Assembly (NCBI RefSeq): GCF_000026545.1
Contig: NC_011601.1
Strand: one strand, 5' to 3'
Length of the DNA stretch: 64,000 nucleotides
Source of the DNA: Escherichia coli O127:H6 str. E2348/69
GTDB lineage: Bacteria > Pseudomonadota > Gammaproteobacteria > Enterobacterales > Enterobacteriaceae
The position numbers were made by a program. This document shows positions 39,901-42,900 of this stretch, one piece after another. The stretch's first letter is position 1. The number at the start of each line of letters is the position of its first letter.

Positions 39901-42900
39901 GCATAATGAGCCAGGGTTCGCAGGTGGCGGGGTTCAGTACCGATTATTTAATCGATCTTGTCACACGCTTTATTAACTGGCAGATGATTGGGGCCATTTT
40001 TGTTTTATTCGTGGCCTGGTTATTCCTGTCACAATGGATTCGCATTACCGTTTTTGTGGTTGCCATTCTGCTATGGCTGAACGTACTTACCCTGGCGGGA
40101 CCAAGTTTCTCCTTGTGGCCAGCCGGTCAACCAACGACCACTGTAACAACGACGGGTGGTAACGCAGCGGCAACCGTTGCGGCGACGGGTGGCGCACCGG
40201 TAGTGGGTGATATACCCGCACAAACTGCACCGCCAACAACAGCAAACCTTAACGCCTGGCTGAATAATTTCTATAACGCGGAGGCGAAACGTAAATCGAT
40301 CTTCCCGTCTTCGCTGCCCGCTGATGCTCAGCCATTTGAACTACTGGTGATTAATATCTGTTCGCTTTCCTGGTCGGATATTAAAGCCGCCGGATTGATG
40401 TCGCATCCACTGTGGTCGCATTTCGATATTGAGTTCAAGAACTTTAACTCCGCCACCTCCTACAGTGGCCCGGCGGCGATCCGTTTACTGCGCGCCAGCT
40501 GCGGGCAGACTTCGCACACTAATCTGTATCAACCGGCAAATAACGACTGCTATCTGTTTGATAACCTGTCGAAACTGGGCTTTACCCAGCACCTGATGAT
40601 GGGACATAACGGCCAGTTCGGTGGTTTTTTGAAGGAAGTTCGCGAAAATGGCGGCATGCAGAGCGAATTGATGGATCAAACAAATCTGCCGGTTATTTTG
40701 CTGGGCTTTGATGGTTCGCCGGTTTATGACGATACCGCCGTGCTTAACCGTTGGCTGGACGTTACCGAAAAAGATAAAAACAGCCGTAGTGCCACGTTCT
40801 ACAACACGCTTCCACTGCATGACGGCAACCATTATCCGGGCGTCAGCAAAACAGCGGATTACAAAGCGCGGGCGCAAAAATTCTTTGATGAACTGGACGC
40901 CTTCTTTACTGAACTGGAGAAATCGGGTCGTAAAGTGATGGTGGTCGTGGTGCCGGAACACGGCGGCGCGCTGAAGGGCGACAGAATGCAGGTATCTGGT
41001 CTACGTGATATCCCTAGCCCGTCTATCACAGACGTCCCCGTTGGGGTGAAATTCTTCGGCATGAAGGCACCACATCAGGGGGCTCCGATTGTCATCGACC
41101 AACCGAGCAGCTTCCTGGCTATCTCCGATCTGGTGGTTCGCGTTCTTGATGGCAAGATTTTCACCGAAGACAATGTTGACTGGAAAAAACTCACCAGTGG
41201 GTTACCACAAACAGCACCGGTCTCTGAGAACTCAAATGCAGTAGTTATTCAATACCAGGATAAACCGTACGTTCGCCTGAACGGCGGCGACTGGGTGCCT
41301 TACCCGCAGTAAGAACGAATAAATATCCTCCGGCATAGCCGGAGGTTTTTCAAATGCGCCTATAAGACTCTCTTACCTGCCGCGCCCTAACAGGCGCACA
41401 CGATCTGACATTTGCATCCAACTTCGTTACTTACGGCCCGTAAACGGGCTGCCCGGATAGGGAATCGATAACTGCTCTCCCATTTTATCCTCTTCAAGCT
41501 GGTGCTTTATGTAATCCTGTATCTTCGCCGTGTTCTTACCCACCGTATCGACGTAATACCCTCTGCACCAGAACTCCCTGTTCCTGTACTTGAATTTCAA
41601 ATCACCAAACTGCTCGTAAAGCATCAGACTGCTTTTCCCTTTCAGATATCCCATAAAGCCGGATACGCTCATTTTGGGCGGGATCTCCACAAGCATATGG
41701 ATATGATCTGCACAGCATTCAGCTTCCAGAATCCGTACACTTTTCCACTCACACAGCTTTCTCAAAATACAGCCTATTGCTCTACGCTTCTCTCTGTAGA
41801 ACACCTGTCTTCGGTATTTTGGCGCAAATACTATGTGATATTTACAGTTCCATCGGGTGTGCGCTAAGCTCTTTTCGTTCCCCATTGGGACCCCCTTTTG
41901 ATTTCTTGTTTGACACTTGCAGTTGCCAGACCGCAAGGTGTTTTAACAAATCAAAAGGGGTTTTAATAACTGGCTCAAAGCTGAAAGCTTTCCGGACCCC
42001 CCAGCCTAGCTGGGGGTTTTCTGTGCACAAAAAGGCCGCAGAGTTTCCCCCTGCGGCCTGATCCGGGCGCAAATTGCCATTACGGCAGCCTGACGCCCGC
42101 ATGACACGTTACTTCCGCTTATTCAGCCAGTTCACGATCATACTGGCAAGAATGCCAGCAATGACCGGAGCCGCTAAATCATGCCAGAAGGCCATGCCCA
42201 GTTCTGCGAGCGTCATATAGCCGCCTGTGTTGTAATGACAACGTTTCGCGGCTATTCTTGAGTGGTCTAGGTTCAAGATTAGCCCCCGTGATGTTGTCAG
42301 GTGCATACCTGCAACGTGCGGGGGTTTTCTCTCTCCAGCAACCAATGCCACCAGGGATTAAGCCCCCGCAACATTGCGCCTCACCGGAACCTTTCCGGCT
42401 TGCCGCTGATTCTACGACTGTTTTTCTGCTCCGGAATCCATCACTTCTTCACTCTGTGCTGCGCATTCCGCAGAATATTATCCGCTTGCAACCGTTGCAT
42501 TTTTCTTACGAAAAAGGCCGCAGAGTTTCACCTCTGCGGCCTGGTCCGGGCGCAAATTGCCATTACGGCAGCCTGGCGCCCGCATGACACGTTACTTCCG
42601 CTTGTTCAGCCAGTTCACGATCATACTGGCAAGAATGCCAGCAATGACCGGAACCGCTAAATCATGCCAGAAGGCCATGCCCAGCTCTGCGAGCGTCATA
42701 TAGCCGCCTGTGTTGTAATGACAACGTTTCGCGGCTATTCTTGAATGGTCTAGATGCAAGAATGGCCCCCGTGATGTTGTCAGGTGCATACCTGCAACGT
42801 GCGGGGGTTTTCTCTCTCCAGCAACCAATGCCACCAGGGATAAAGCCCCCGCAACATTGCGCCTCACCGGAACCCTTCCGGCTTGCCGCTGATTTTACGA

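Follow-up and report, generated by a model that had tools for sequence, protein, structure and literature searches.

Organization of the IS200C element

The window that we analyzed, a 64,000-nt stretch of contig NC_011601.1 from Escherichia coli O127:H6 str. E2348/69, contains an IS200C copy that sits at the bcsG-ldrD site, within the T-tract of the terminator of ldrD. An empty-site comparison showed that the K-12 sequence, in which ...CTGCGGCCTTTTT is followed directly by CGTTCTTACTG, is broken by 711 bp in E2348/69; relative to this empty site the insert has no target duplication, and the ambiguity at its ends is at most 2 nt (TT). In most E. coli genomes the bcsG flank was matched only up to position 41323, and the same element is labelled IS200C in the annotation of NZ_LT827011.1. 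Its main features are as follows.

41318-42030, minus strand: IS200C insertion sequence, 711 bp (boundaries 41318/41320 to 42028/42030, each with a 2-nt TT ambiguity)
41427-41885, minus strand: tnpA coding sequence, 152 aa, Y1 HUH transposase (ATG at 41885-41883)
41996-42018, minus strand: left-end subterminal hairpin, corresponding to published IS200 nt 12-34 and to the first helix of the Rfam RF01405 match
41327-41345, minus strand: right-end subterminal hairpin CCUCCGGC-UAU-GCCGGAGG, within the inserted 711 bp and shaped like the left-end hairpin

TnpA matched Pfam PF01797 (residues 11-129, E = 1.7e-37), corresponds to RefSeq WP_000526113.1 (IS200C family transposase), and is 95% identical to the TnpA of Salmonella IS200F. 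The element has the properties of the IS200 group: a single Y1 ORF of about 150 aa, the size class of approximately 707-710 bp, ends that lack terminal inverted repeats, and subterminal hairpins at both ends. The left-end hairpin, inside which we found a terminator-like site (41998-42016), acts in IS200 as a bidirectional terminator against impinging transcription (Ellis 2015), and in E2348/69 it may also be a hairpin to which TnpA binds. Published positions were converted by setting IS200 nt 1 to window position 42030; nt 69-138 thus correspond to 41962-41893.

Structure of the tnpA leader

The segment immediately upstream of tnpA is very probably the main stem-loop of the 5' leader of the transposase mRNA, which hides the ribosome-binding site. 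This hairpin spans 69 nt just upstream of the tnpA ATG (41885), and most of the Shine-Dalgarno (SD) sequence lies in its 3' arm. It is built in three tiers, namely a lower stem of 13+2 bp, a middle helix of 4 bp, and an apical stem of 7 bp that is closed by the loop CUGGCA.

41948-41960, minus strand: 5' arm of the lower stem, CCCCUUUUGAUUU, perfectly paired with the 3' arm (pair probabilities 0.62-1.0)
41892-41904, minus strand: 3' arm of the lower stem, AAAUCAAAAGGGG, identified by folding and inverted-repeat detection
41954-41960, minus strand: anti-SD sequence CCCCUUU within the 5' arm, the site of the published LS mutation (-69 to -75)
41890-41897, minus strand: SD sequence AAGGGGGU, with its first six bases paired; sequence as in Ellis 2015
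41917-41936, minus strand: apical stem-loop UUGCGGU-CUGGCA-ACUGCAA (pair probabilities 0.9-1.0)
41977-41991, minus strand: small hairpin AAAGCUUUCAGCUUU, with which the published tnpA transcript begins; seen in the fold of the natural transcript; second helix of RF01405

The original prediction had placed an inverted repeat here with arms about 40 nt apart. We recovered it at 41892-41907 and 41945-41960 (16 nt, 94% complementary), with a spacing of 37 nt. Folding of the 5' untranslated region, the first check that had been proposed, gave a stable structure that includes the SD sequence: the leader (41975-41870, minus strand) folded at -37.2 kcal/mol, as compared with -22.8 +/- 3.3 kcal/mol for 200 dinucleotide shuffles (z = -4.37), none of which was as stable. 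Pair probabilities were calculated on the natural transcript, from IS200 nt 40 to +60 of the coding sequence. The 13 pairs of the lower stem, from 41960/41892 to 41948/41904, had probabilities of 0.62-1.0, and these rose to 0.95-1.0 for the ten pairs across the SD sequence. The near-consensus SD sequence is located 5-12 nt before the AUG, and its AAGGGG was paired with a probability of 0.99, whereas the values for its last two bases, G and U, were 0.19 and 0.32. The claim that the SD sequence lies inside a long hairpin therefore holds for six of its eight bases; G41891, U41890, and the AUG are outside the long helix. Changing the anti-SD sequence in silico lowered the pairing of the SD sequence from 0.99 to 0-0.4.

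For the exact leader of the window, the accessibility of the SD sequence was only modestly lower than after shuffling (0.10 versus 0.24), and 17% of the shuffles were equally low in a control that kept the 12 nt before the SD sequence and the G/C-rich start region. The folding energy and the pair probabilities are the stronger statistics for the E2348/69 copy. The leader also matched Rfam RF01405 over its full length (model positions 1-124 of 124; 142.1 bits against a gathering score of 56; E = 2.5e-30), and the consensus structure of this family includes the lower stem of the hairpin.

Probable translational repression of the transposase

The hairpin in E2348/69 is of the same type and at the same position as the stem-loop of the IS200 tnpA 5' untranslated region (Beuzon, Marques and Casadesus 1999, as far as that work is relayed by later papers; Ellis, Trussler and Haniford 2015; RF01405). 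Its span coincides with the IS200 inverted repeat published at nt 69-138 (Beuzon 1999, PMC148624, as reported through Ellis 2015 and Sittka 2008). In E. coli hosts carrying Salmonella IS200, the LS mutation of positions -69 to -75, which map to 41954-41960 (CCCCTTT) in the window, raised the 30S toeprint 20-fold and tnpA-lacZ expression 50-fold, effects that did not depend on the antisense RNA art200; disruption of translational control led to more IS200 transposition (Ellis 2015). The stem-disruption checks that had been proposed for this locus have therefore already been carried out in the literature, on Salmonella IS200. The hairpin itself is already known, having been described, mutated, and catalogued, and our results support the published interpretation.

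We aligned the element with the Salmonella IS200F copy, which was assumed to represent the element of the published experiments. The lower stem, the SD sequence, the spacer, the ATG, and the apical loop are identical in the two copies, and the left-end terminator hairpin and the small 5' hairpin are present in both, as is the sequence of the putative art200 gene. Only the 4-bp middle helix differs (CACC...GTGTCA in E2348/69 versus CATC...AAGTTC in IS200F), and it can still pair, as an ACAC/GUGU rather than an AAC/GUU-type helix. On the basis of this near identity, the E2348/69 copy would be expected to act like Salmonella IS200. The IS200-type repression by SD sequestration that had been suggested for this locus thus agrees with the published span, the full-length RF01405 match, the identity with Salmonella, and the published LS mutations.

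In the most probable mechanism, the anti-SD arm CCCCUUUUGAUUU would pair with AAAUCAAAAGGGG, and six of the eight SD bases lie in the latter. With the SD sequence locked in a stable helix, 30S subunits would seldom bind, little transposase would be made, and the element would be nearly immobile. This block in cis would act beside the antisense RNA art200 and the binding of Hfq just upstream of the SD sequence, and the hairpin would also turn the leader into a stable RNA fragment, which in Salmonella is 5'tnpA. Both additional layers of repression, and the role of the hairpin as the body of the stable small RNA 5'tnpA, were overlooked in the original prediction.

The start of tnpA transcription has been published at approximately IS200 nt 40, which is window position 41991 (Ellis 2015). 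Since this start is upstream of the whole hairpin, each tnpA transcript would carry both arms. A consensus promoter scan found no promoter-like site on either strand of 41250-42150; the blank result for the tnpA and art200 promoters agrees with the literature, in which both are called weak or atypical.

The putative antisense RNA art200

The hairpin is also encoded on the opposite strand, where two features were assigned.

41877-41966, plus strand: art200 (STnc490) antisense RNA gene, about 90 nt, placed by homology; it comprises the same hairpin followed by UUUU
41841-41870, plus strand: probable art200 promoter, with a -35 hexamer TTTACA (41841-41846), an 18-nt spacer, and a weak -10 hexamer TAAGCT (41865-41870)

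The 5' ends of art200 have been published at IS200 nt 153/154, or 41878/41877 in the window, and its promoter has been described as having a good -35 together with a -10 that is hardly recognisable (Ellis 2015). The hexamers are our own assignment, probable on sequence grounds, and they fit this description. The putative art200 region, which would cover the SD sequence and the first three codons, is invariant in the E. coli, Salmonella, and Yersinia copies, and so is its probable promoter with the TTTACA -35 hexamer. In Salmonella, the terminal loop of the apical stem is the kissing-loop contact of art200, as indicated by the M1 loop mutations (Ellis 2015). The Rfam model that bears the name STnc490 matched the sense strand, not the art200 strand.

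We considered whether the inverted repeat is maintained mainly as the body and intrinsic terminator of art200, with burial of the SD sequence as a by-product. The plus-strand hairpin folded at -35.4 kcal/mol and is followed by GGGGUUUUAAUAA, and the art200 region mapped by homology extends from 41877/8 to about 41966. Furthermore, in 18 of the 28 lineages the antisense fold was the more stable one by a small margin, with 49 G-U pairs in the antisense and 27 in the sense orientation, and art200 knockdown lifts tnpA-lacZ approximately 13-fold (Ellis 2015). However, this strand asymmetry did not reach significance (p = 0.09), and the A-rich composition of the sense strand is a confounding factor. 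Every lineage forms its 3' arm around the SD sequence of its own leader, and the anti-SD sequence changes with it (GGGG/CCCC, GGAGG/CCUCC, and GGAG/CUCC), as predicted for a constraint tied to the ribosome-binding site. Because the hairpin folds equally well in the antisense orientation, sequence analysis alone does not tell which strand was selected, a question that is answered only by the published mutations: translation rises 50-fold in the LS mutants, and titration of art200 has an additional effect, so that the sense hairpin works independently. We consider it highly improbable that the repeat is maintained mainly for art200.

Conservation among relatives

Among 49 distinct leaders (52-100% TnpA identity), the SD sequence was buried in 39, and its median probability of being unpaired was 0.01 as compared with 0.32 when the upstream sequence was shuffled. 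The same hairpin was found in all four of four further elements from named hosts, and the apical loop was conserved down to approximately 60% TnpA identity in a MAFFT alignment. RNAalifold returned no consensus structure on the unguided MAFFT alignment of 51 distinct leaders. Since the arms of different lineages are offset by 1-3 columns, we used an alignment-free comparison of own and cross-lineage arms together with a count of pairs in the enteric clade, and the family-wide evidence for covariation rests on the former. Across 28 lineages, duplexes between the arms of the same leader averaged -18.7 kcal/mol versus -11.6 kcal/mol for cross-lineage duplexes, and none of 20,000 permutations was as good. 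In the enteric clade, 94.3% of the cells were paired as compared with 42-60% at slid registers, and five pairs showed compensatory changes, including an SD/anti-SD pair that changed from CG to UA (0 of 500 shuffles). IS1541 of Yersinia pestis, an IS200 orthologue whose TnpA is 93-94% identical, has the same leader architecture; its lower stem, SD and anti-SD arms, and apical loop are identical, and its middle helix is a compensatory variant (AACA/UGUU).

Transposases of the IS200/IS605 family bind subterminal DNA hairpins, and an inverted repeat in such an element could act as DNA, as a single-strand hairpin in peel-and-paste transposition, or could be a chance palindrome. The subterminal hairpins of this copy, however, are those at 41996-42018 and 41327-41345; they are similar to each other (a GC stem with a UAG or UAU loop) and differ from the leader hairpin. 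The 3' arm of the latter always coincides with the SD sequence, and chance is excluded by the z-score of -4.4 and by conservation. A DNA-level role or a chance origin is thus extremely unlikely.

The enteric hairpin might instead now serve chiefly as the scaffold of a domesticated small RNA (5'tnpA, or tnpA-90 and tnpA-110) that regulates host genes, with control of the transposase being secondary in a dormant element. Processing of the Salmonella leader at nt 19 and approximately nt 108 of the transcript yields stable RNAs of 90-110 nt that repress invF and SPI-1 genes (sources including a 2024 preprint), the IS200 paralogs are reported to be essentially identical and immobile, and the E2348/69 leader is nearly identical to that of Salmonella. 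Nevertheless, the initial 50 nt of the transcript, which for the most part precede the arm with the SD sequence, are all that repression of invF requires, and the targets known so far belong to the Salmonella pathogenicity island SPI-1. Hairpins that bury the SD sequence occur throughout the IS200 group in unrelated hosts, which indicates that the structure is older than any domestication. We regard this explanation as unlikely and retain sequestration of the ribosome-binding site as the most probable function of the hairpin.

An embedded -10 box in non-enteric relatives

One further position of the leader was examined with the MAFFT alignment and -10 scans.

41940-41948, minus strand: TGTTAAAAC, degenerate in E2348/69; place of an extended -10 (TGnTATAAT) in non-enteric relatives

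An extended -10 sequence lies just after the anti-SD arm in most non-enteric relatives, an observation that may be new. Of 28 lineages, 21 had a sense-strand -10 box directly behind the anti-SD arm, and in 15 the box was TGn-extended, as compared with 3.8 and 0.25 in shuffles. Because of the location of the box, the relatives' own transcripts would lack that arm; in the transcripts predicted to start from it, the median probability of an unpaired SD sequence was 0.52 versus 0.007. No -35 partner was found for the embedded boxes (mean best match 3.2 of 6, approximately the chance level), so that only a promoter of the extended -10 type is tenable. At the homologous position, the alignment and the -10 scans showed no -10 box in the E2348/69 copy or in either of the two enteric lineages; the TGn-box version of 41940-41948 would read TGTTATAAT, and the present sequence is TGTTAAAAC.

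In IS10 and IS50, read-through transcripts reportedly bury the ribosome-binding site, whereas transcripts from the element's own promoter are said to lack the 5' arm (work of the Kleckner and Reznikoff laboratories). IS10 combines such a hairpin in cis with the antisense RNA-OUT, as enteric IS200 combines its hairpin with art200. Unlike in IS10 and IS50, the start at nt 40 in enteric IS200 is upstream of both arms, and the element's own mRNA is silenced too. If the E2348/69 hairpin were a filter of the IS10/IS50 kind, only read-through RNA would carry the anti-SD arm, as the embedded -10 in 21 of 28 relative lineages, with predicted own-start transcripts that leave the SD sequence free, might suggest. 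This is very improbable for the E2348/69 copy: like the rest of the enteric clade, it lacks the box (TGTTAAAAC), no promoter-like site was detected in the element, and the only 5' ends that primer extension in Salmonella revealed beyond the published start, on its downstream side, were processed ones. The IS10-like logic seems to fit non-enteric relatives in the IS200 group, not the E2348/69 copy.

We raise tentatively, and with slightly more doubt than confidence, the possibility that the hairpin of the IS200 group was originally not a constitutive brake but a filter against read-through, the box having been lost in the enteric IS200/IS1541 clade, to which the E2348/69 copy belongs. The extended -10 without a -35 in Clostridium, Enterococcus, Staphylococcus, Tetragenococcus, and many prophage-borne copies would be in line with this proposal. 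In such elements, the mRNA from the element's own promoter would start at the base of the conserved apical stem-loop without the anti-SD arm and would be translatable, and transcripts from outside would be silent. Loss of the box in the enteric clade would mean that all enteric transcripts carry both arms.

Implications

A naive reading of the raw sequence recovered the textbook translational repression of a transposase, and all of the published control elements are intact in the EPEC copy at the sequence level. Annotators should describe this span as the leader of IS200 tnpA together with the art200 locus and not as a new regulatory element. If the proposed history is confirmed, most members of the group would use the hairpin to filter out transcription from outside, and the enteric clade would have turned it into a permanent lock. 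Loss of the box in enteric elements would then help to explain the dormancy of IS200 and how its leader became free to evolve into a small RNA; this observation, if confirmed, would provide a concrete explanation, in the sequence itself, for the long-noted dormancy of enteric IS200.

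IS200C and its insertion site

The hairpin precedes a gene for a Y1/HUH transposase (TnpA; Pfam PF01797, E = 1.7e-37). Here the window is 100% identical to the chromosome of E. coli O127:H6 E2348/69, whose annotation places an IS200C transposase gene between bcsG and ldrD. Comparison with the uninterrupted K-12 site defined an insertion of 711 bp (ambiguous by 2 nt, TT) within the T-tract of the ldrD terminator.

Features of IS200C. Published landmarks (given with their IS200 nt) were mapped with IS200 nt 1 at 42030.
41318/41320 to 42028/42030, tnpA on minus strand: IS200C element, from the empty-site comparison with K-12
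about 42019-41997, minus strand: left-end terminator (nt 12-34)
41991, minus strand: tnpA transcription start (about nt 40)
41962-41893, minus strand: inverted repeat (nt 69-138); 41962 is also where the span under study begins
41885-41883, minus strand: tnpA ATG (nt 146 = 41885), directly preceded by the span 41962-41886 ending in AAAUCAAAAGGGGGUCCCA
41885-41427, minus strand: tnpA ORF, 152 aa
41878/41877, plus strand: 5' ends (nt 153/154) of art200, the antisense RNA to the tnpA start

The ldrD intrinsic terminator hairpin occupies 42033-42059, and IS200C sits exactly in its T-tract; the plasmid-borne copies from Salmonella and Y. pestis likewise follow a T-run. After the insertion, the right-end hairpin of the element (41327-41345, with TTTTT after it on the + strand) lies 15 nt past the stop codon of bcsG and looks like a substitute terminator for that gene. 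This hairpin falls within a weak, sub-threshold Rfam match (41310-41350, + strand; 26.6 bits, gathering score 315) to the Yersinia sRNA Ysr202, and the Ysr202 model may overlap an IS1541 end. The bcsG-IS200C-ldr order is shared, at approximately 98% identity, by several E. coli strains of avian, bovine and human origin, which suggests that the insertion is old and vertically inherited, in keeping with the dormancy of IS200.

Two tandem ldr/rdl type I toxin-antitoxin copies lie at 42109-42867, compared with a single ldrD at the corresponding K-12 locus; their Ldr ORFs end in NWLNKRK, and rdlD RNA matches were found at 42265-42330 and 42748-42813 (+ strand; 90 and 83 bits). Sub-threshold sok matches over the ldr mRNAs are probably due to chance. 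On the E. coli plasmid p88COLEC-1 (NZ_CP070907.1, 127809-129028), an IS200 copy lies beside the ltrA gene of a group II intron. Its tnpA is frameshifted and its left-end hairpin altered, but its leader hairpin is intact and identical to that of the window.

The leader hairpin is predicted to sequester the SD

The original prediction of an inverted repeat on the tnpA strand before the ATG was borne out by an inverted-repeat search, which found 16-nt arms (41892-41907 and 41945-41960) with 94% complementarity and 37 nt between them. The 106-nt fold around the span was stable (-37.2 kcal/mol compared with -22.8 +/- 3.3 for 200 dinucleotide shuffles, none of which was as stable; z = -4.37) and placed the Shine-Dalgarno sequence (SD) in the lower stem. 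The hairpin is built in three tiers, with 13(+2) bp in the lower stem, 4 bp in the middle helix and 7 bp in the apical stem, which is capped by the loop CUGGCA. When the transcript was folded from its published start, ten lower-stem pairs, including those of the SD, had probabilities of 0.95-1.0. The prediction that the SD lies inside a long hairpin held for the AAGGGG bases of the SD AAGGGGGU, which were 99% paired, but not for its final two bases, which fall outside the helix with the AUG.

The feature is the published IS200 stem-loop; the original proposal of its mechanism is, according to later papers, that of Beuzon et al. (1999). The hairpin is already known, experimentally tested and catalogued, and earlier papers already describe the inverted repeat as shared across the IS200 group. 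Rfam RF01405 matched over its whole length (142 bits; gathering score, 56), and the stem is present in its consensus structure. The window copy matches Salmonella IS200F and Y. pestis IS1541B exactly in the lower stem, SD, spacer, ATG and apical stem-loop, and in the sequence upstream of the art200 start; among the leader parts aligned, only the middle helix differs. At the sequence level, every published control element is intact in the window copy.

The RF01405 match, named STnc490, is on the tnpA-sense strand (41895-42018) and takes in the left-end terminator, which precedes the published tnpA start; no RF01405 match was found on the + strand at E <= 1. Since STnc490/art200 was defined as an RNA antisense to the tnpA start codon, automatic Rfam annotation would assign the sRNA to the wrong strand and, in part, to the wrong position.

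In Salmonella IS200, Ellis, Trussler and Haniford (2015) introduced mutations into the lower stem (LS) at -69 to -75, which corresponds in the window to the anti-SD CCCCTTT at 41954-41960. The LS mutation strengthened the 30S toeprint 20-fold and raised tnpA-lacZ expression 50-fold, with an additional 4-fold on art200 titration; art200 knockdown alone had an approximately 13-fold effect and hfq deletion an approximately 5-fold effect. They concluded that the secondary structure sequesters the SD directly, independently of art200 and Hfq. An in-silico analogue of this mutation reduced SD pairing from 0.99 to 0-0.4. The landmark match, the full-length RF01405 match and the LS effects support the predicted IS200-type translational repression; the observation is confirmed and its interpretation supported.

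On the + strand the hairpin would form the body of art200; its fold there is as stable as the sense fold and is followed by UUUU, and a strand-asymmetry comparison did not separate the sense and antisense readings. The LS effect is independent of art200 and the 3' arm is always the SD, which together argue that the sense hairpin is functional in its own right. A role as an sRNA scaffold is real in Salmonella, where processing of this leader yields stable RNAs of 90 and 110 nt with invF and other genes as regulatory targets; however, the initial 50 nt of the transcript suffice for this role. A DNA-level role was unsupported: subterminal hairpins occur at the expected positions (41996-42018 and 41327-41345) and resemble each other but not the leader hairpin.

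Conservation of SD pairing among relatives

We compared 52 distinct tnpA leaders from plasmids and viral contigs (TnpA identity, 52-100%). An SD could be recognised in 49 leaders and was >90% paired in 39 of them; its median P(unpaired) was 0.01, compared with 0.32 when the upstream sequence was shuffled. Arm sequences vary by lineage with complementarity kept, both in the anti-SD/SD pairs (CCCC/GGGG, CCUCC/GGAGG, CUCC/GGAG) and in flanking pairs such as UAAUGUG/CACAUUA and UUUCGAU/AUCGAAA. RNAalifold found no consensus structure in the unguided leader alignment because the register of the arms shifts from one lineage to another. In an alignment-free comparison of 28 lineages, own-arm duplexes averaged -18.7 kcal/mol and cross-lineage duplexes -11.6 kcal/mol (none of 20,000 permutations was as good). 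Within the trivially alignable enteric clade, 94.3% of cells paired, compared with 42-60% at slid registers, and five pairs showed compensatory change (0/500 shuffles), including an SD/anti-SD pair changed from CG to UA. All four additional elements from named hosts (E. faecalis, S. epidermidis, T. muriaticus and R. jaguaris) had the hairpin as well.

In the MAFFT alignment, the apical loop and its closing pairs (GGUCUG[G/C]CAAC; window 41923-41930, minus strand) are near-constant down to approximately 60% TnpA identity, distant Gram-positive elements included, while the lower stem varies freely. In Salmonella, art200 makes its kissing contact with this loop.

An embedded -10 box in non-enteric relatives

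In most non-enteric relatives (comparison loci L009-L012 and L047-L096, e.g., L076:495-582), the block immediately after the anti-SD arm reads TGATATAAT or a near variant, with one T invariant in the unguided alignment. A sense-strand -10 hexamer (at least 5 of 6 positions, A2 and T6 required, at -64 to -50) was present in 21 of the 28 lineages (mean 3.8 and maximum 10 in 1,000 shuffles). Of the 28, 15 had a TGn-extended form (TGnTATAAT), against 0.25 expected and a maximum of 4, and 11 had a perfect TATAAT, against 0.42 expected; no accompanying -35 box was found in these lineages. Three of the four out-of-sample named-host elements also carried the box. A start placed 7 nt beyond the box would lie at the base of the apical hairpin; the predicted transcripts would lack the anti-SD arm and leave the SD open (median P(unpaired), 0.52 vs 0.007).

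The box is absent from both enteric lineages, and the homologous window position (41948-41940, minus strand) reads TGTTAAAAC. In Salmonella primer-extension experiments, all 5' ends reported downstream of nt 40 were processed ones. A literature search of incomplete coverage found no description of such a box or filter in the IS200 group, and the observation is possibly new. These sequence patterns suggest that most of the IS200 group may carry an IS10/IS50-like filter against outside transcription, which the enteric clade would have converted to a constitutive lock.
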